Shown here piece after piece: positions 1,293 through 52,736 of a DNA stretch of 64,000 bases. The position numbers and the translations under genes are program-made. The first letter of the stretch is position 1. The number at the start of each line of letters is the position of its first letter. This stretch comes from Escherichia coli (lineage in GTDB: Bacteria; Pseudomonadota; Gammaproteobacteria; Enterobacterales; Enterobacteriaceae): assembly GCF_003991155.1 (NCBI RefSeq), contig NZ_CP031293.1; one strand, 5' to 3'. Below the pieces are notes generated by a model that searched no databases, was not told the DNA's origin, and was given only the letters and a program-made list of their open reading frames with translations.

Positions 1293-1768
1293 TATTTACG
1301 TTCCCTGAAATAAAAGAGACCCTACGCTTTCCAAAAGGAATACGTATATAGAGAAATATAAGGTGTGCACTTTCGAATTTTTAATCCAACTTCAGCAGGC
1401 CGATGGATAGTATCCTGCTGCATAATATGAGTAAATCCGCTGATTTCCTGGAACGTGAGGAATATAACAATAGTGCCGTTTTTAACCAAATATCGTAAAA
1501 AATATTAGATATAATTCACGCTGACTCATAAGCCACAAATATAAATAACCTTGCTGCAAAACATGTGCGGCAGTTAAACATTCACAACATCATTAAATAA
1601 TGATTTTTTATTCACGGCATTTATTTTTCCCATCAATATGTGCCTTACACTGCAAAATTTATCCTTCACTCTGCCTTATATTGTCACGACTTCACGACAT
1701 ATCCGCGCTCATCACAAAACCGCCCCGCCGTTACAATTAACTATAATATTTTTTCATGGAATCCAATA

Positions 1769-2215
1769 ATGGCAGCACTTACTGCAAGCTGTATTGACCT
1801 GAATATTCAGGGCAATGGCGCTTATTCCGTTCTGAAGCAGTTGGCGACAATGGCGTTACAAAACGGTTTTATCACCGACTCACACCAGTTCCTGCAAACC
1901 CTGCTGCTGCGCGAAAAAATGCACTCCACGGGATTTGGTTCCGGTGTCGCCGTGCCGCACGGTAAAAGCGCCTGCGTTAAACAACCGTTCGTGTTATTCG
2001 CCCGCAAAACGCAGGCCATTGACTGGCAGGCCAGCGATGGCGAAGACGTCAATTGCTGGATCTGCCTCGGCGTGCCACAAAGTGGCGAAGAGGAACAGGT
2101 CAAAATCATCGGCACGCTGTGCCGCAAAATTATCCACCAGGATTTTATCGACCAACTGCGACAGGGCGACGCCGACCAGGTGCTTGCTTTGTTAAATCAA
2201 ACCCTCAGCTCATAA
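1769..2215 (+). CDS. frvA: PTS fructose-like EIIA component
   Basis: 148 aa from the internal ATG at 1769 of track ORF 1640..2215 (MAALTASCIDLN...); length and position match K-12 frvA at the head of frvABXR. Confidence 0.9.
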   Translation: MAALTASCIDLNIQGNGAYSVLKQLATMALQNGFITDSHQFLQTLLLREKMHSTGFGSGVAVPHGKSACVKQPFVLFARKTQAIDWQASDGEDVNCWICLGVPQSGEEEQVKIIGTLCRKIIHQDFIDQLRQGDADQVLALLNQTLSS

Positions 2216-13267: not shown

Positions 13268-16200
13268 ATGCAGGTCAGCAGAAGGCAGTTCTTTAAGATC
13301 TGCGCTGGCGGTATGGCAGGCACCACGGCAGCGGCACTGGGTTTTGCACCCAGCGTAGCACTCGCGGAAACCCGGCAGTATAAACTGCTGCGCACCCGCG
13401 AAACCCGTAATACCTGCACCTATTGTTCCGTAGGCTGTGGGCTGTTGATGTACAGCCTCGGTGACGGAGCAAAAAACGCCAAAGCATCTATCTTCCATAT
13501 CGAAGGCGATCCGGATCACCCGGTCAACCGCGGTGCACTTTGTCCGAAAGGCGCTGGCCTGGTGGATTTCATCCACTCCGAAAGCCGCCTGAAGTTTCCG
13601 GAATACCGTGCGCCAGGTTCTGATAAATGGCAACAAATCAGTTGGGAAGAGGCGTTTGATCGCATCGCCAAACTGATGAAAGAAGACCGCGATGCGAACT
13701 ACATTGCGCAAAACGCCGAAGGCGTGACTGTTAACCGCTGGCTCTCCACCGGGATGCTGTGTGCTTCCGCGTCGAGTAACGAAACCGGCTATTTAACGCA
13801 AAAATTCTCCCGCGCGCTGGGGATGCTCGCGGTCGACAACCAGGCGCGTGTCTGACACGGACCAACGGTAGCAAGTCTTGCTCCAACATTTGGTCGCGGT
13901 GCGATGACCAACCACTGGGTCGACATCAAGAACGCCAACCTCGTCGTGGTGATGGGCGGTAACGCCGCTGAAGCTCACCCGGTCGGGTTCCGCTGGGCGA
14001 TGGAAGCCAAAATTCACAACGGCGCGAAGCTGATTGTGATCGATCCTCGCTTTACACGTACGGCGGCGGTGGCTGACTACTATGCCCCTATTCGTTCCGG
14101 TACTGACATTGCTTTCCTGTCAGGCGTATTGCTGTACCTGCTGAACAATGAAAAATTCAACCGCGAATACACCGAAGCCTATACCAACGCCAGCCTGATC
14201 GTGCGTGAGGATTACGGCTTTGAAGATGGCCTGTTCACCGGCTACGACGCGGAAAAACGCAAGTACGATAAATCCAGCTGGACCTACGAGCTGGACGAAA
14301 ACGGCTTCGCCAAACGCGATACCACGCTGCAACATCCGCGCTGCGTGTGGAACTTGCTGAAACAGCACGTTTCCCGTTATACGCCAGATGTGGTTGAAAA
14401 CATCTGCGGTACGCCAAAAGACGCGTTCCTGAAAGTCTGCGAATACATCGCCGAAACCAGTGCTCACGATAAAACTGCCTCGTTCCTTTACGCGCTCGGC
14501 TGGACGCAACACTCCATTGGTGCGCAAAACATTCGTACGATGGCGATGATCCAGCTGCTGCTCGGCAACATGGGGATGGCAGGCGGCGGCGTTAACGCCC
14601 TGCGCGGTCACTCCAATATTCAGGGGCTGACCGACCTGGGGCTACTGTCGCAGAGTCTGCCAGGTTACATGACGTTGCCAAGCGAGAAGCAGACCGATCT
14701 GCAAACTTACCTCGCTGCCAACACGCCAAAACCACTGCTGGAAGGCCAGGTCAACTACTGGGGCAACTACCCGAAATTCTTCGTCTCTATGATGAAGGCC
14801 TTCTTTGGTGATAAAGCGACGGCGGAAAATAGCTGGGGCTTTGACTGGTTGCCGAAGTGGGATAAAGGCTACGACGTCCTGCAATACTTCGAGATGATGA
14901 AAGAGGGCAAGGTCAATGGCTATATCTGCCAGGGCTTTAACCCTGTTGCCTCATTCCCGAACAAAAACAAAGTGATCGGCTGTCTGTCGAAGCTGAAATT
15001 CCTCGTGACTATCGACCCGCTGAACACTGAAACCTCTAACTTCTGGCAGAACCACGGTGAGCTGAACGAAGTTGACTCGTCGAAGATCCAGACCGAAGTG
15101 TTCCGTCTGCCATCGACCTGCTTTGCGGAAGAGAACGGTTCAATCGTCAACTCTGGTCGCTGGTTGCAGTGGCACTGGAAAGGTGCGGACGCCCCGGGGA
15201 TTGCGCTGACTGACGGCGAGATCCTCTCCGGTATCTTCCTGCGCTTGCGCAAGATGTATGCCGAACAGGGTGGCGCGAACCCGGACCAGGTGCTGAACAT
15301 GACCTGGAACTACGCCATTCCGCATGAGCCATCTTCAGAAGAAGTGGCGATGGAGAGCAACGGCAAAGCGCTGGCCGATATTACCGACCCGGCAACCGGT
15401 GCGGTTATCGTCAAGAAAGGCCAACAACTTAGCTCGTTCGCCCAACTGCGCGATGACGGTACAACCTCCTGTGGCTGCTGGATTTTCGCCGGTAGCTGGA
15501 CGCCGGAAGGCAACCAGATGGCGCGTCGTGATAACGCCGATCCGTCTGGCCTCGGTAACACGCTGGGCTGGGCATGGGCATGGCCGCTTAACCGCCGCAT
15601 TCTGTATAACCGCGCCTCCGCAGATCCGCAGGGTAACCCATGGGATCCGAAGCGTCAGTTGCTGAAATGGGACGGCACTAAGTGGACCGGCTGGGATATT
15701 CCGGATTACAGCGCAGCGCCTCCGGGCAGCGGCGTAGGGCCGTTTATCATGCAGCAGGAAGGCATGGGACGTCTGTTTGCCCTCGATAAGATGGCGGAAG
15801 GTCCGTTCCCGGAACACTACGAGCCGTTTGAAACGCCGCTGGGAACTAACCCGCTGCATCCAAACGTTATCTCGAACCCGGCTGCGCGAATCTTTAAAGA
15901 CGACGCCGAAGCATTGGGTAAAGCCGATAAGTTCCCGTATGTCGGAACCACCTATCGTCTGACCGAGCACTTCCACTACTGGACCAAACACGCGCTGTTG
16001 AACGCGATTTTGCAACCAGAGCAGTTTGTGGAAATCGGGGAGTCGCTGGCGAATAAACTTGGCATTGCCCAGGGCGATACTGTGAAAGTCTCCTCCAACC
16101 GTGGCTATATCAAAGCCAAAGCGGTAGTGACCAAACGTATTCGCACGCTGAAAGCAAACGGCAAAGATATCGATACCATCGGTATTCCGATTCACTGGGG

Positions 16201-40043: not shown

Positions 40044-40754
40044 CTACAGATTAATGATGAGGTCTACGGCCTCAAATCGCCAATATTCAATATCTATCTG
40101 GACAATATTGCCCTGCTGGTCGGCGCGATGCTTTTCAATTAAGATCGCTGGCATACCCGCAGAACCGCCAAGATACTTGCTGATATCGCCCGGCATTCTG
40201 ACGGGTTTGAAAATCAATTTTTTTACTACCGTCTCTTTTTGGTAGCACTTTTCCCAGACTGCAGAAAATGAGTGGTTTTCAAGTTGTTCAATAAAACCCG
40301 GGGCAACTTCAGGATTAATATATGTTTCGTGATAGAAAACTTTATGTCCTTCCAGCGCCCCCCAGCCGGTGATGCGATAGAGTTCAGTTGATGGTGTCAC
40401 TGCAATCAGTGGCGCGAGCGTCTCGGGAATATCGCTGGTACGGTTTTTCTCGGTAAACCCCCAGGAAGGCTCTCGTCCTTGCTCAATTGCGGCCCGCTGA
40501 AAGCTCGCTGACAGCTCCGGACTGTAATTAAATCGCGGCTGGGTCACGAACCACCCCTTACGATCCTTACGGAAGATTTTGGATTCTGCCTCGAGGTTCA
40601 ACAACGCCTGGCGCAGCGTCATACGTTTAATGCCCAGCAGTTCTCCCAGCTCTCTTTCTGAAGGGAGTTTTCCACCCGGCGTGGTGATGCCATCTTTCAA
40701 CCACCGATCCAGTTTCTCTTTTGCATTTTCTACGGTGGATTGATTCTCCGCCAT
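40044..40754 (-). CDS. yihL: GntR-family transcriptional regulator
   Basis: 236 aa; N-terminal wHTH (RELGELLGIKRMTLRQALLNLE) plus UTRA-like C-terminus. Confidence 0.85.
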   Translation of the reverse strand: MAENQSTVENAKEKLDRWLKDGITTPGGKLPSERELGELLGIKRMTLRQALLNLEAESKIFRKDRKGWFVTQPRFNYSPELSASFQRAAIEQGREPSWGFTEKNRTSDIPETLAPLIAVTPSTELYRITGWGALEGHKVFYHETYINPEVAPGFIEQLENHSFSAVWEKCYQKETVVKKLIFKPVRMPGDISKYLGGSAGMPAILIEKHRADQQGNIVQIDIEYWRFEAVDLIINL

Positions 40755-40932
40755 TGTTTAATCCTTTTGGTTTAAACCAGATGAAGCATCTTACGCTTAC
40801 GCCAAAAAAGAAAGCAATTAACGGTGTATGACTTTGCAGATAATTGTGACAAAGCTCTCTATTGACGTAATCACAGACTTATAAGGGAGATACTCGCATT
40901 GGTGTGCGCTCACGACAGGTAAAAAAAAACCT

Positions 40933-40944
40933 GCCAGCGATGGC
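40933..40944. repeat. Target-site duplication (left copy) of IS4, gccagcgatggc
   Basis: Identical 12-mer directly flanks both IS4 ends (also at 42371..42382). Confidence 0.85.
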
Positions 40945-42370
40945 TAATGCCAGTCAGTTAAGCAACTGACTGGCTCTTTTTCGGGGCTGTGGGGTATTTC
41001 CAGGGCCTCTCCTTTACCACTCTCGGGAAGGCCCTTTCCCTTCTTGTCGGTAATTTCACAAGTTGTCCCATACTTGCAAGATCGCGCATCAGCTCCGGTA
41101 TACGTCCCGGTGAAGCGCCCTGCAATGTCATCAGCATTCTCATCACCATTCCGCATGATTCTGAGAAACTCAGTTGATTCGGCCAGTAACCTTTCAGATG
41201 TTCCGCCATTTTAATCATCTGATATCTCACCAGATTATAAGCCAGTAAGACACCCCACAGCTCTTGCTCCACAAGCTCCGGTTTTTTACTTCTCAGCGTC
41301 AGCCTGCTCAGTTGCATCGTCTGTTTTATCTCCCTGTATCCCAGTTCGATTTCCCAGCGATGACTGTACAGATCCGCCATTTCTCCTCCGGGGAAGCGCA
41401 TGGCGTCCGTCATCGACGTCAGCAGATGGCAGACTTTTCCTTTGCGCGTCACGGTCAGCAGGCGGGCTGTCACTTCATTTCCCAGTCCCGGCCACTTTTT
41501 TCGTGCCTGCGGGCTGGTTTTCAGCTTCACCAGATGATCGCCTTTACCCAGTTTTCTGATCTCTTCATATTGCGCTCCCTTTCTGAGAGGTATCATCCAG
41601 TGGCGGTGTTCTCCCGCCAGGCTCCAGGCATTTAACAGTCCCAGTGAGTAATAACCTTTATCCATTAACGTCAGAGTGTTATCGCCGGTTTGTTCTATAA
41701 GTTGCTCAGCAAGCTCATTTTCGCTGTTCTTCATCGTGCCGAAGGCTGCAGCCGTCAGCAGATGGCTGGTCAGTTCCATCTGGCAGACCATTTTGACCTG
41801 CGGGTAGAGCGCCGGGTTCCCGGCATGTGTCTGGCGGGGGAAGGCTGCATCGTTCTCTGGTGTATCCGGTGTGCGCCAGAACACACCATCGATGGCCAGC
41901 AAGGTCAGGCCGCACCAGTGCGGATGCGGCGTGGCGTTATGCCAGAGCTGCGCTGTTTTCGTGAACACGCGGCGGACAGCCTCACTTCCCAGGCGCTGGC
42001 GGGCCTGAATAACGGCACTGGGGGCAACGAAGGGGCGATTGCCCGGCAGCATGATGTCCAGGCGATTCACAATCTGGTGAAGAGGTTCTTTACGCTCAAG
42101 CGCCATGCCAACAATACACCAGACCATCATTTCGAGGGGAAGACGGCGCTTGCGTAGCGTTACAGTACCTGATTCGGCAAGGCAACGAGAGATGAGTTCG
42201 GGGTCGAGGTAATCCCCCAGAGAAGTCAGTGGGTTACGCAGAGAATCGTAACGGGATACCAGATCAAGAGCCTGTCCAATGTGCATAAAAAAATCCGGAA
42301 ACAAGTGAGCGTTTCCGGATTCTTACACAGCCACTGGATCGGTCAACTGATCCTTAACTGATCGGCATTA
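40945..42370 (-). mobile_element. IS4 insertion sequence, complete (1426 bp) with 18-bp imperfect terminal inverted repeats
   Basis: Ends TAATGCCAGTCAGTTAAG (left) and TAATGCCGATCAGTTAAG (right, reverse complement); single transposase ORF; 12-bp direct repeats flanking. Confidence 0.9.
40958..42286 (-). CDS. insG: IS4 transposase (DDE)
   Basis: 442 aa from internal ATG of track ORF 40958..42304; IS4 transposase sequence recognised. Confidence 0.88.
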
Positions 42371-42382
42371 GCCAGCGATGGC
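42371..42382. repeat. Target-site duplication (right copy) of IS4
   Basis: gccagcgatggc repeated at the other IS4 end. Confidence 0.85.
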
Positions 42383-42408
42383 AGGTTTTTTATAACTAAA
42401 AAACGAAA

Positions 42409-44232
42409 TTAATCGTCTTTCGGTGCGCGGTTGGCGCGACGACGATCGTTTTCCGTCAGGTGACGTTTACGAATACGGATAGAGGTCGGAGTCACTTCTA
42501 CCAGTTCGTCATCATCGATGAACTCCAGAGCTTGTTCCAGAGTCATGCGGATAGGCGGAACCAGAACAACGGCTTCGTCAGTACCGGAAGCACGCATGTT
42601 GGTCAGTTTCTTACCGGTCAGGCAGTTTACAGTCAGGTCGTTAGAGCGGCTGTGAATGCCGATAATCTGACCTTCGTAAACTTCTGCACCGTGACCGAGG
42701 AACAGCTTACCGCGGTCCTGCAGACCGAACAGCGCGAACGCTACCGCTTTACCCTGACCGTTAGAGATCAGTACGCCGTTCTGACGCTGACCCACTTCAC
42801 CCGGACGTACGTCGTCGTAGTGGCTGAAGGTGGAGTACAGCAGACCAGTACCGGAAGTCATGGTCATGAACTCAGAACGGAAGCCAATCAGACCACGGCT
42901 TGGGATCACGTAGTCGAGACGTACGCGGCCTTTACCGTCTGGATTCATGTTTTTCAGGTCGCCTTTACGTTCGCCCAGCGCCTGCATCACAGAACCCTGA
43001 TGCTGTTCTTCAACGTCCAGCGTCACGTTTTCATACGGCTCTTGTTTACGACCGTCGATTTCACGGAAGATTACTTTCGGACGGGATACCGCCAGTTCGA
43101 AACCTTCACGACGCATGTTTTCAATAAGAACAGACAGGTGCAGTTCGCCACGACCAGAAACGCGGAACGCATCGGCGTCTTCGGTTTCTTCTACGCGCAG
43201 CGCAACGTTGTGTACCAGTTCTTTGTTCAGACGATCCAGGATCTGACGAGACGTTACGAACTTACCTTCTTTACCGCAGAACGGCGAGGTGTTAACGCAG
43301 AAGAACATAGAAACGGTCGGCTCATCAACGGAGAGTGCCGGCAGCGCTTCAACGTTTTGCGTGTCGCAAACGGTGTCAGAAATGTTCAGTTCGCCCAGGC
43401 CCGTGATCGCCACGATATCGCCAGCTTCCGCCAGATCGGTTTCAATACGTTCCAGACCGAGGTGGCCCAGCACTTTACCGACTTTCGCGTTACGGGTTTT
43501 GCCTTCGCTATCGATGATAGTGACCTGCTGGTTCGGCTTCACTTTACCGCGCTTGATGCGGCCAATGCCGATAACGCCAACATAGCTGTTGTAATCGAGC
43601 TGAGAAATCTGCATCTGGAACGGACCGTCAAGGTCAACGTCCGGCGCAGGAACGTGGTCAACAATCGCCTGATACAGCGGGGTCATGTCTTCCGCCATAT
43701 CTTCGTGGTCCAGACCCGCGATACCGTTCAGCGCAGAAGCGTAAACGATCGGGAAGTCCAGCTGCTCGTCGGTCGCGTCGAGGTTAACGAACAGATCGAA
43801 TACCTGATCCACAACCCAATCAGGACGCGCGCCAGGGCGGTCAACTTTGTTGATAACAACAATCGGCTTCAGGCCGTAAGCAAACGCTTTTTTGGTTACG
43901 AAGCGCGTTTGCGGCATCGGGCCGTCAAATGCGTCAACCACCAGCAGCACTGAGTCTACCATGGACATTACACGTTCAACTTCACCACCGAAGTCGGCGT
44001 GCCCCGGGGTATCAACGATGTTGATACGGTAATCATTCCATTTGATAGCGGTGTTTTTCGCGAGGATGGTAATCCCACGCTCTTTCTCCAAATCGTTGGA
44101 GTCCATCACGCGCTCTTGGGTTTCGGCACGAGAGTCGAACGTACCGGATTGTTGGAGCAGCTTGTCTACCAGGGTGGTTTTACCATGGTCTACGTGCGCG
44201 ATGATGGCGATATTACGCAATTTTTCGATCAC
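42409..44232 (-). CDS. typA: Ribosome-associated translational GTPase BipA/TypA
   Basis: 607 aa; G1 [21 protein letters not shown] motifs; EF-G-like architecture. Confidence 0.93.
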
Positions 44233-44383
44233 AACTTTGCCTCAGGCATTAGAAATAGCGCGTTATTGTACACGGATTAATCGCACTACAAAACAGGATC
44301 ACAAACATCCTCCGCAAACAAGTATTGCAGAGTCCCTTTGTGATCGCTTTCACGGAGCATAAAAAGGGTTATCCAAAGGTCAT

Positions 44384-44470
44384 TGCACCAACATGGTGCT
44401 TAATGTTTCCATTGAAGCACTATATTGGTGCAACATTCACATCATGGTGCAGCCCTTTTGCACGATGTTA
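44384..44470 (+). promoter_or_regulatory. NtrC (NRI) enhancer sites upstream of glnA
   Basis: Repeated TGCACCA-N3-TGGTGCA-type half-site pairs: tgcaccaacatggtgct, gcactatattggtgca, plus two further partial sites. Confidence 0.8.
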
Positions 44471-49069: not shown

Positions 49070-50443
49070 TTAAATCACCCGTGAGAACTGCTGCATCCGC
49101 GCTTTCTGGCGCAGATAGGTATCAAAGCACATGCAAATGTTGCGGATCAGCAAGCGACCTTTCGCCGTCACTTGAATCCCCTTCTCATCCACATCCACCA
49201 GCCCATCTTTTGCTAACGGGGCGAGCAGCTTGAGATCTTCCGCAAAGTAATCAGCGAAGTGCAAATCCCACTGTTGCTCAATGGGAGCGTAATCCAGACG
49301 GAAGTTGCAGATGAGCGACTTAATCACATCGCGGCGAATACAGTCATCACGCGTTAGCGCAATACCACGCCACAGCGCATTGCCTTGTTCATCCACTTGC
49401 TGATAGTACTGCTTCAACTCTTTCTGGTTCTGCGCGTAGCAGTCGCCAATCATGCTGATGGCGGAAACGCCCATCCCCAGCAAATCGGTATCGCCCTGAG
49501 TGGTATAGCCCTGGAAGTTACGATGCAACACGCCTTCGCGCTGGGCCACTGCCAGCTCGTCATCAGGGCGAGCAAAGTGATCCATACCGATAAACTGATA
49601 GCCCGATTGTGTCAGGAAGGCGATGGTTTCCTGCAAGATATCGAGTTTTTGTTGCGGACTCGGCAAGTCAGCATCTTTGATTTTGCGTTGGGCGGCAAAA
49701 ATAGTTGGCAGATGCGCGTAGTTAAAGACGCTCAGACGATCGGGGTTCAGCTCCGCCACACGTTTCAGGGTAAAGGCAAAACTTTCCGGCGTCTGTTTCG
49801 GCAGACCGTAAATCAGGTCGATGTTGGTGGAGGTAAAGCCAATCTCACGCGCATGGTTAAGCAGTGCAAAGATGAACTCTTCATCCTGCTCGCGGTTAAC
49901 CAGACGTTGCACTTCTTTGTTGAAGTCCTGCACGCCCATGCTCAGGCGATTAAAGCCCTCGGCGCGTAAATGATCGAGTACATCCAGTTCGATTTCGCGC
50001 GGATCGACTTCGATCGAAATCTCCGCATCGGCATTGAACTGGAAGTTTTCGCGCAGCAGCTTCATCAGACGGCTGATTTGCGCTTTGTTCAGATACGTCG
50101 GCGTACCACCGCCCCAGTGCAGCTGGCTCACCTTGCGCCCGGCAAAAAGCGGTGCACGATGGACGATTTCTTGCTCCAGCGCGTCCAGATACTGATCGGC
50201 CTTGTGCTGCTGGCGAGTAACTATCTTATTGCAACCGCAGAAGTAACAAAGCTTATGGCAGAACGGAATATGTACGTAGAGAGATAATGGACGCTCAGGA
50301 TAGCGCGCCACGGCTTGTAAAAACGCCTGTTCGCCGAAGTCTTCTGAAAACTCCAGCGCGGTCGGGTACGAGGTGTATCGTGGCCCGGAATAGTTATATT
50401 TCTGGATCAGGGCCAGATCCCAGTCGATTTGCTGTACAGACAT
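49070..50443 (-). CDS. hemN: Oxygen-independent coproporphyrinogen III oxidase (radical SAM)
   Basis: 457 aa from internal ATG; CxxxCxxC radical-SAM motif (CHKLCYFCGC). Confidence 0.93.
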   Translation of the reverse strand: MSVQQIDWDLALIQKYNYSGPRYTSYPTALEFSEDFGEQAFLQAVARYPERPLSLYVHIPFCHKLCYFCGCNKIVTRQQHKADQYLDALEQEIVHRAPLFAGRKVSQLHWGGGTPTYLNKAQISRLMKLLRENFQFNADAEISIEVDPREIELDVLDHLRAEGFNRLSMGVQDFNKEVQRLVNREQDEEFIFALLNHAREIGFTSTNIDLIYGLPKQTPESFAFTLKRVAELNPDRLSVFNYAHLPTIFAAQRKIKDADLPSPQQKLDILQETIAFLTQSGYQFIGMDHFARPDDELAVAQREGVLHRNFQGYTTQGDTDLLGMGVSAISMIGDCYAQNQKELKQYYQQVDEQGNALWRGIALTRDDCIRRDVIKSLICNFRLDYAPIEQQWDLHFADYFAEDLKLLAPLAKDGLVDVDEKGIQVTAKGRLLIRNICMCFDTYLRQKARMQQFSRVI

Positions 50444-51141: not shown

Positions 51142-51211
51142 AATGGTTCGTCTTTTAGCCGTTTTATTCAGTATAGATTTGCGGCGGAATCTAACAGAAA
51201 GCAAGCAAAGA

Positions 51212-51462
51212 AAAAAGGCGACAGATTACTCTGTCGCCTTTTTTCCTGACTCATAACCCTTAACGGGTCTTACAATCCTTGCAGGCCGCCAACACACCCT
51301 GTTTTTCCATTAGCCGGAACAATCCGTGTTGATTCCATTTCCGTTTAATTACGTCTCCGGACGTTTGTCTTCCTGACAATCCTCTGTCTTCGCCTCCTGG
51401 CGCTCCTGACCCTCATCCTGAGTCATTGTTCCTGTTAGCGTCCTCGCTCTATGGGTGCTACT
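51212..51462 (-). ncRNA. csrC: CsrC small RNA (CsrA-sequestering)
   Basis: Minus strand reads ATAGAGCGAGGACGC... with many AGGA/GGA motifs, ending in hairpin ggcgacagagtaatctgtcgcc plus T-run; lies between engB and yihI as in K-12. Confidence 0.85.
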
Positions 51463-52480: not shown

Positions 52481-52589
52481 TAAAAAACGCCCCAGTCATT
52501 ACTGACTGGGGCGGCTAAAATATTCAGCCAAATCCGATTACGTGAAGTAAAAGGTCTGAAAGATAGAACATCTTACCTCTGTACCCTAC
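52481..52589 (-). ncRNA. spf: Spot 42 small RNA
   Basis: Minus strand reads GTAGGGTACAGAGGTAAGATGTTCTATCTTTCAGACC...CCCCAGTCAGTAATGACTGGGGCGTTTTTTA; 109 nt, downstream of polA. Confidence 0.9.
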
Positions 52590-52736
52590 GCGACTAACTT
52601 TACTCTTTTTTGTTCAGTTCAGAAAGCATTTTTTGTAATTTTTTTTCAGTTGTTGCATAGGAATTTCTAATAGCCATCACAAAACGTGACAGCTTATGTT
52701 GCTTACTTACGAAAAAAGGGCATGTTCAGGCGAATC

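Follow-up and report, generated by a model that had tools for sequence, protein, structure and literature searches.

In the window, which is the whole stretch of 64,000 nucleotides of Escherichia coli DNA that was analysed, an insertion sequence lies between typA and yihL and splits the hairpin that once followed typA. The locus raises two questions: why the element sits at exactly this point, and what becomes of transcription leaving typA in the direction of yihL, yihM and yihN. We consider it very probable that this is an ordinary, intact IS4 in its preferred target, which is predicted to replace the terminator it has split and to have a small effect on expression. The features of the region are listed in Table 1.

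Table 1 Features of the typA-yihL region, with positions counted from the first nucleotide of the window
Feature	Position	Strand	Description	Source
yihL	40044-40754	-	GntR-family regulator; first gene downstream	ORF list, RefSeq
Former typA terminator, left arm	40921-40932		A9 (40921-40929) and outer 3 bp of the stem, cct (40930-32)	
Target-site duplication, left copy	40933-40944		Inner 4 bp of each stem arm and the 4-nt loop	
IS4	40945-42370	-	1426 bp, intact; transposase direction same as typA and yihL	
Terminal inverted repeat, transposase-distal end	40945-40962		taatgccagtcagttaag	Direct comparison of ends
Perfect 11-bp hairpin, terminator-like	40949-40974	+	Overlaps the terminal repeat; followed by TCTTTTTC	Terminator scan, inverted repeat
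IS4 transposase gene	40958-42286	-	ATG at 42286; 442 aa, stop included	ORF list
14-bp hairpin and U7	42289-42324	-	Just before the transposase AUG; faces transcription from typA	
Candidate transposase promoter	42319-42346	-	TTGACC-16 nt-AAGAAT, 9/12 matches	Consensus scan
Terminal inverted repeat, transposase-proximal end	42353-42370		cttaactgatcggcatta	Direct comparison of ends
Target-site duplication, right copy	42371-42382		Exact repeat of the left copy	
Former typA terminator, right arm	42383-42391		Outer stem agg (42383-85) and T6 (42386-91)	
typA (bipA)	42409-44232	-	Intact	ORF list, RefSeq annotation of the identical locus

The first-pass annotation had described a 1426-bp IS4 flanked by a 12-bp duplication, and both were confirmed to the base. 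The length agrees with the ~1.4 kb of IS4, and only 5 base differences separate the element from the annotated IS4 of MG1655 (99.6 % identity). Copies that are 100 % identical occur in many complete E. coli genomes; by sequence search, IS4 is present in 2686 of the 5426 complete genomes, with roughly 5300 chromosomal copies in all, and RefSeq records with the identical junction annotate it as an IS4-like element. The terminal inverted repeats are 18 bp long and match at 16 of 18 positions. The element carries the single DDE-transposase ORF expected of IS4, as the Pfam record of the exact 442-aa protein lists the domains Nterm_IS4 and DDE_Tnp_1. The same protein, residue for residue, is found in 6926 blocks of the assembly collection, from thousands of assemblies, and the insG gene of MG1655 is likewise annotated with 442 aa. 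Both ends and the transposase ORF are intact in the window copy. The target duplication is exact over 12 bp, within the 11-14 bp (about one helical turn) of IS4, and is 12-14 bp long at ten other sites. Thus, by every membership test that a sequence can address, the element belongs to the IS4 family, IS4 subgroup. The transposase start is inconsistent among records: the RefSeq pipeline uses a TTG at 42304 (448 aa) in place of the ATG, and this TTG falls within the loop of the 5' hairpin.

The closest known case is the IS4 of K-12 (ISfinder IS4 family, IS4 subgroup; insG), which shares the 1426 bp, the 16/18 repeats, the 442 aa and a 12-bp duplication. However, MG1655 has a single copy, between yjgZ and nanX, and that site has AAA-N20-TTT arms with only a weak hairpin.

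The duplicated sequence is gccagcgatggc. The two copies are identical on alignment, and the identity breaks off at the very next base in both directions. When IS4 and one repeat were deleted, the remaining sequence was aaaaaaaaacctgccagcgatggcaggtttttt, which consists of A9, a 7-bp GC stem (cctgcca and tggcagg) around the 4-nt loop gcga, and T6; read in the typA sense, it is A6, the 7-bp stem, the 4-nt loop and U9. The first-pass annotation was therefore right in placing IS4 precisely within the typA terminator hairpin, with the stem split, upstream of yihL-yihM-yihN. The A-run begins ~17-18 nt past the typA stop codon. The predicted folding energy is -18.5 kcal/mol (z -5.8) in the typA sense and -19.1 kcal/mol (z -5.4) on the other strand, and none of 200 shuffled sequences folded as well. 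A GC-rich stem-loop followed by a U-run just past a stop codon has the sequence features of an intrinsic (Rho-independent) terminator. An Rfam search over the whole window found no family within the typA-yihL spacer or within IS4. No coding sequence was interrupted, since IS4 entered the spacer between typA and yihL at a distance of 38 nt from the typA stop and of 190 nt from the yihL start. The left terminator arm now lies on the yihL side of IS4, and the T6 of the right arm is, in the typA sense, the A-run that precedes the hairpin.

The comparison with IS4-free genomes proposed in the first-pass annotation also bears this reconstruction out. A 412-nt empty-site sequence matches 4351 of the 5426 genomes over at least 80 % of its length, and in one genome (NZ_CP033884, strain 50579417) it matches at 100 % identity. 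The two observations that the first-pass annotation had named as refuting, empty sites that form no hairpin and flanking 12-mers that differ, were thus not made. The filled junctions were found in 52 (left) and 54 (right) genomes. It could be supposed that the element or its duplication is an artefact of assembly or of our reading of the sequence; nothing in favour of this was found, and identical junctions in these 52-54 independently sequenced complete genomes, together with the empty site in the 4351, make this scarcely conceivable.

The split hairpin had been called a bidirectional terminator. The shape justifies the name, as the empty site has A9 and T6 arms and presents a hairpin with a U-run on both strands, each of which folds. 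The gene arrangement does not: the minus-strand order is typA, IS4 transposase, yihL, yihM and yihN, all co-directional, and termination is thus needed in one direction only. Convergent genes flank the typA hairpin only in B2 strains such as E2348/69. Bidirectional intrinsic terminators made of an A-tract, a hairpin and a U-tract were reportedly mapped genome-wide by SEnd-seq (Ju et al. 2019). The rebuilt typA terminator resembles them in being symmetric and in folding equally well on both strands, but differs in that the window genes provide no convergent transcription to stop.

Variation around the empty site was also observed. The 4-nt loop has two alleles, each the reverse complement of the other, which amounts to a small inversion with the hairpin stem as its boundary. 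In the typA sense, the loop is GCGA in K-12, strain 582 and E2348/69, and UCGC in the window, IAI39 and 2016C-3878; MG1655 thus has the same typA hairpin with its loop inverted. The terminator is also the edge of a variable segment, and in ~1000 genomes the match to the empty site is confined to the part that starts with the A-run. E2348/69 lacks the yihL side, and there the gene of a DeoR-family regulator converges on typA at the same hairpin. In UPEC-774U (UPEC-774U/190308) an STM4011-4014-like island of radical-SAM and hydrolase genes adjoins typA, and the hairpin is absent. An IS4-mediated deletion was considered as an explanation for the absence of the yihL region from B2 strains and was rejected, because the B2 hairpin is intact and the point where homology stops is the A-run rather than the loop. 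A third exact copy of gccagcgatggc lies at 2030-2041 of the window, inside a PTS EIIA-like ORF (1640-2215, plus strand), without A/T arms and without a hairpin. We judged it to be a chance match, though only ~0.008 such matches are expected per 64 kb.

The typA terminator has been entered by IS4 more than once. The window orientation, with the transposase gene co-directional with typA, accounts for the 52-54 genomes mentioned above; strain 2016C-3878 is an example. When a synthetic junction with reversed IS4 was used as query, the opposite orientation was found in 15 further genomes, including IAI39 and CE10, which brings the filled typA site to 67-69 genomes. The reversed IS4 of IAI39 sits at the same nucleotide and has the same duplication. 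Strain 582 has the window orientation, but both of its repeats are gccatcgctggc and the insertion thus happened in the other loop allele. With both orientations and two loop alleles represented, the terminator has been hit at least three independent times. The first-pass annotation overlooked that such a hairpin is the normal target of IS4 and is repeatedly hit, and the precision of the insertion is no coincidence. Since terminators with A/T arms are predictable landing sites for IS4, shared IS4 positions at them are poor markers of common descent.

The target preference was examined with 11 distinct E. coli IS4 sites, mostly from one multi-copy genome (ten contexts) and the rest from other genomes. 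Seven of the 11 consist of an A-run, a GC hairpin and a T-run, with folding energies from -16.7 to -20.7 kcal/mol (adhE/tdk, yceK-side/opgH, raiA/bamD, eno/TPM, rpoD/mug, degS/mdh and yihL/typA). All seven are intergenic, most are at the 3' ends of genes, and in each of the seven the 12-14-bp duplication is centred on the loop. The remaining four (two in coding sequences, bcsG and a DUF4049 gene; ravA/kup; and the K-12 site) have no good hairpin, yet they have A-rich and T-rich arms ~20 bp apart. The K-12 site is AAA-N20-TTT exactly, and the window site, AAA-a-cctgccagcgatggcagg-t-TTT, fits the same formula. In the IS-free window only 0.07 % of positions satisfy comparable criteria (binomial P ~2e-20 for 7/11), and only two loci are canonical, the typA terminator being one of these. 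The other canonical site, with an A-run, a strong hairpin (-25 kcal/mol) and a T-run, is at 49762-49809 (aaaaaaggcgacag…ctgtcgcctttttt); under the target rule IS4 could insert there, and in the window the site is unoccupied.

A scan for IS4 terminal repeats in one genome per species gave at least 74 unique outward flanks from ~20 genomes of other genera. These belong to elements with IS4-type termini, a set defined by these ends; the relatives among the matches listed include Pseudoalteromonas, Shewanella, Vibrio, Pseudomonas, Methylophaga, Comamonas, Vogesella, Andreprevotia and others. In the 74 flanks, A makes up 77-91 % at positions -19 to -15, followed by a G+C-rich block at -14 to -8, an A/T centre and G/C at -3 to -1. 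The loci of Pseudomonas sp. ok272 were excluded from these statistics, since their short elements lie in a REP-like unit that is itself repeated, so that the sites do not count as independent. More than 50 copies of a mini-element of ~145 bp occur in this genome, with an IS4-type terminal repeat at both ends (pairs of TAATGCCRRTCAGTTAAG, 127 bp apart on opposite strands). All copies lie within a REP-like repeat, with sequence ending in gtaggagcgaggcttgccc before the element and a flank of the …gggcaagcct type after it. The mini-element has the look of a MITE that arose from an IS4 relative with REP sequences as its target.

An insertion of IS4 in the terminator of the pheST attenuator was reportedly described by Mayaux et al. 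(Gene 1984), together with the consensus AAA-N20-TTT, and the target pattern found here agrees with that consensus. A hairpin is lacking at four of the 11 E. coli sites, so the secondary structure of the DNA cannot by itself determine the choice. Sites without a hairpin are used when the arms are present, and the two arms are therefore probably read by a symmetric transposase complex; terminators would then simply be the commonest sequences that fit this arm requirement. IS4-type transposases thus choose sites with an A-run and a T-run on either side of ~18-20 bp, in most cases a G+C-rich palindrome, and the two strands are cut 12-14 bp apart, symmetrically about the dyad. Among E. coli sequences, those that most often have this form are intrinsic terminators with an upstream A-tract, which puts IS4 in the hairpin loop. 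In mutation-accumulation lines, IS4 insertions are biased to non-coding DNA (4/8, P=0.02; PMC5009759). A paper on Shigella IS elements contains no statement on IS target choice, and a paper with both IS4 and 'attenuator' was set aside as irrelevant, its subject being an insertion in ompF.

Placement in terminators might also come about by selection after random insertion, if genic insertions are lost and intergenic ones are tolerated. Intergenic insertions are generally better tolerated, and the position of all seven hairpin sites between genes fits this idea. However, three independent events with the same nucleotide position and the same 12-bp duplication are not what random insertion between genes would produce, nor would it centre the duplications on the loop in 7/7 hairpin sites. 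In addition, the copies within coding sequences (bcsG and the DUF4049 gene) have A-rich and T-rich arms at the same spacing, and the 74 flanks have a position-specific A-run at a fixed distance from the element end. We therefore regard selection after random insertion as very unlikely, and target choice by the element as the preferred reading of its position.

The second question concerns transcription. On the typA side, the terminator remnant (the A-run, cctgcca-ucgc-uggc and then IS4) has a folding energy of -5.4 kcal/mol (z 0.09) and has lost the U-run. As it folds no better than shuffled sequences, the native typA terminator is gone. Each side keeps only a 4-bp mini-hairpin, with the U-run now 1.4 kb away. 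The suggestion in the first-pass annotation that typA termination may be altered fits this loss of the native hairpin. The accompanying suggestion of read-through into yihL is not what the sequence leads one to expect, since a strong hairpin with U7 lies 47-82 nt inside the typA-facing end of IS4 (-18.8 kcal/mol, z -6.3, 0/200 shuffles). The terminator scan did not call this hairpin on the minus strand; we think that it was missed because the maximal stem absorbs five of the seven U's.

The hairpin at the opposite end of IS4 is terminator-like with respect to transcription entering from the yihL side (-18.7 kcal/mol, z -3.6). On the strand of the incoming transcription it is followed by UCUUUUUC, and the transposase stop codon (40958-40960) lies within it. 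In the IAI39 orientation this hairpin would face typA. A hairpin with a T-run also occurs in the same two end positions of relatives from Shewanella, Vibrio, Pseudoalteromonas, Comamonas and Andreprevotia, with different sequences, and the arrangement of hairpin, T-run and ATG at the transposase end occurs in the Shewanella, Vibrio and Pseudoalteromonas relatives. As the form is kept with different sequences across genera, the comparison suggests that the end structures are functional.

The first-pass annotation had further proposed that IS4 may supply outward promoter activity. Neither a consensus promoter scan nor a reading of the final 150 nt of IS4 on the minus strand gave an outward promoter at the yihL end. 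The idea was not adopted, though a consensus scan may miss such a promoter. The only promoter-like site in the region is the TTGACC-16-AAGAAT candidate for the transposase gene, and the evidence for it is weak, as one site was found where 1.2 are expected. Its -10 hexamer overlaps the 5' hairpin arm, so a transcript started there could not form the 14-bp hairpin. As the transposase stop is 13 nt from the element end, transposase transcripts must reach the border, where the terminal hairpin, a 4-bp mini-hairpin contributed by the repeat, and U9 lie in their path.

These observations bear on whether the insertion is an adaptive regulatory mutation, in which removal of the terminator or supply of a promoter raises or uncouples the expression of yihL and yihM-yihN, or alters the stability of typA mRNA, and has been selected. 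In its favour, the typA side has lost the native terminator, the transposase gene is directed toward yihL with transcripts that must reach the border, and insertion at the typA site recurs and is kept in 67-69 genomes. However, the recurrence is explained by the target preference, since the same genomes carry IS4 in other terminators. The occurrence of both orientations argues against a direction-specific promoter effect, and the consensus scan found no outward promoter-like site. A strong hairpin with U7 stands between typA and the remainder of IS4. The low activity of IS4, which accounted for 8 of 758 new insertions (PMC5009759), also speaks against adaptation. We consider the adaptive explanation improbable.

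The preferred reading remains that of an ordinary IS4 whose own hairpin stands in for the one it split. Folding of the sequence predicts that typA transcripts would end at the hairpin and U7, ~80 nt inside IS4. This structure would take the place of the lost terminator and keep typA read-through out of the transposase gene and yihL. Apart from weak read-through from the transposase gene, no transcription would be likely to pass from IS4 toward yihL, and the expression of typA and yihLMN is predicted to change little overall. A small effect would fit the persistence of the insertion in whole lineages. A near-neutral swap of terminators is thus the best prediction for the locus, and changed yihLMN expression is a minority possibility. 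An annotation of 'terminator lost' may overstate the effect, as IS4 is predicted to bring replacement terminators with it.

A more general form of this idea can be put forward tentatively, and we hold it to be somewhat less likely to be right than wrong: elements of the IS4 subgroup may be 'terminator-swapping' elements, which home to intrinsic terminators and carry inward-facing terminators at both ends. If this is true, a lost transcript boundary would be rebuilt within ~30-80 nt in either orientation. Insertion would then be almost neutral, which would explain recurrent and long-lived occupancy of sites such as the typA terminator.

Several known systems are similar to what is seen here. 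The pheST attenuator case is alike in that IS4 lies inside a terminator with A-run, stem-loop and T-run. It differs in being a regulatory attenuator on a plasmid with a selected phenotype, whereas the window has the end-of-gene terminator of typA in natural isolates. Protection of IS10 and IS50 against transcription from outside was reportedly described by Davis, Simons and Kleckner (1985) and by Krebs and Reznikoff (1986). That effect is mainly translational. IS4 is alike in having an end structure over or before the transposase start that would be formed only by read-through transcripts; in contrast to IS10 and IS50, its predicted hairpin with U7 looks like a true terminator, and a second one would guard the other end. 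IS1397, ISKpn1, IS621 and ISRm22 (IS4 family) insert into extragenic palindromes (PMC1525189). Like IS4, they select short palindromic intergenic DNA and recur at equivalent positions; however, their targets are REP/BIME, whereas IS4 targets unique terminator-like hairpins, mainly through the A/T arms. The Pseudomonas sp. ok272 mini-elements with IS4-type ends lie in REP-like repeats and resemble the palindrome-homing elements in this respect.

A literature search found no report that links IS4 with typA/bipA or yihL. The element, its duplication and its preference for A-run, hairpin and T-run are long established, and dozens of genomes in RefSeq already have an annotated IS4 between typA and yihL. 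The finding holds but is an ordinary one, and nothing at the window locus departs from established IS4 biology. It matters little for the typA-yihL locus itself; the predicted replacement of terminators by IS4-type elements is the one idea with some freshness.

Elsewhere in the window, Rfam matches were obtained for the ES222 sRNA just upstream of typA (44314-44421, minus strand), for CsrC (51199-51452, minus strand) and Spot 42 (52481-52599, minus strand), and for a SECIS element (13850-13908, plus strand). A further match at 61686-64000 (minus strand) covers 5S rRNA and the 3' part of 23S rRNA, which runs off the window end.
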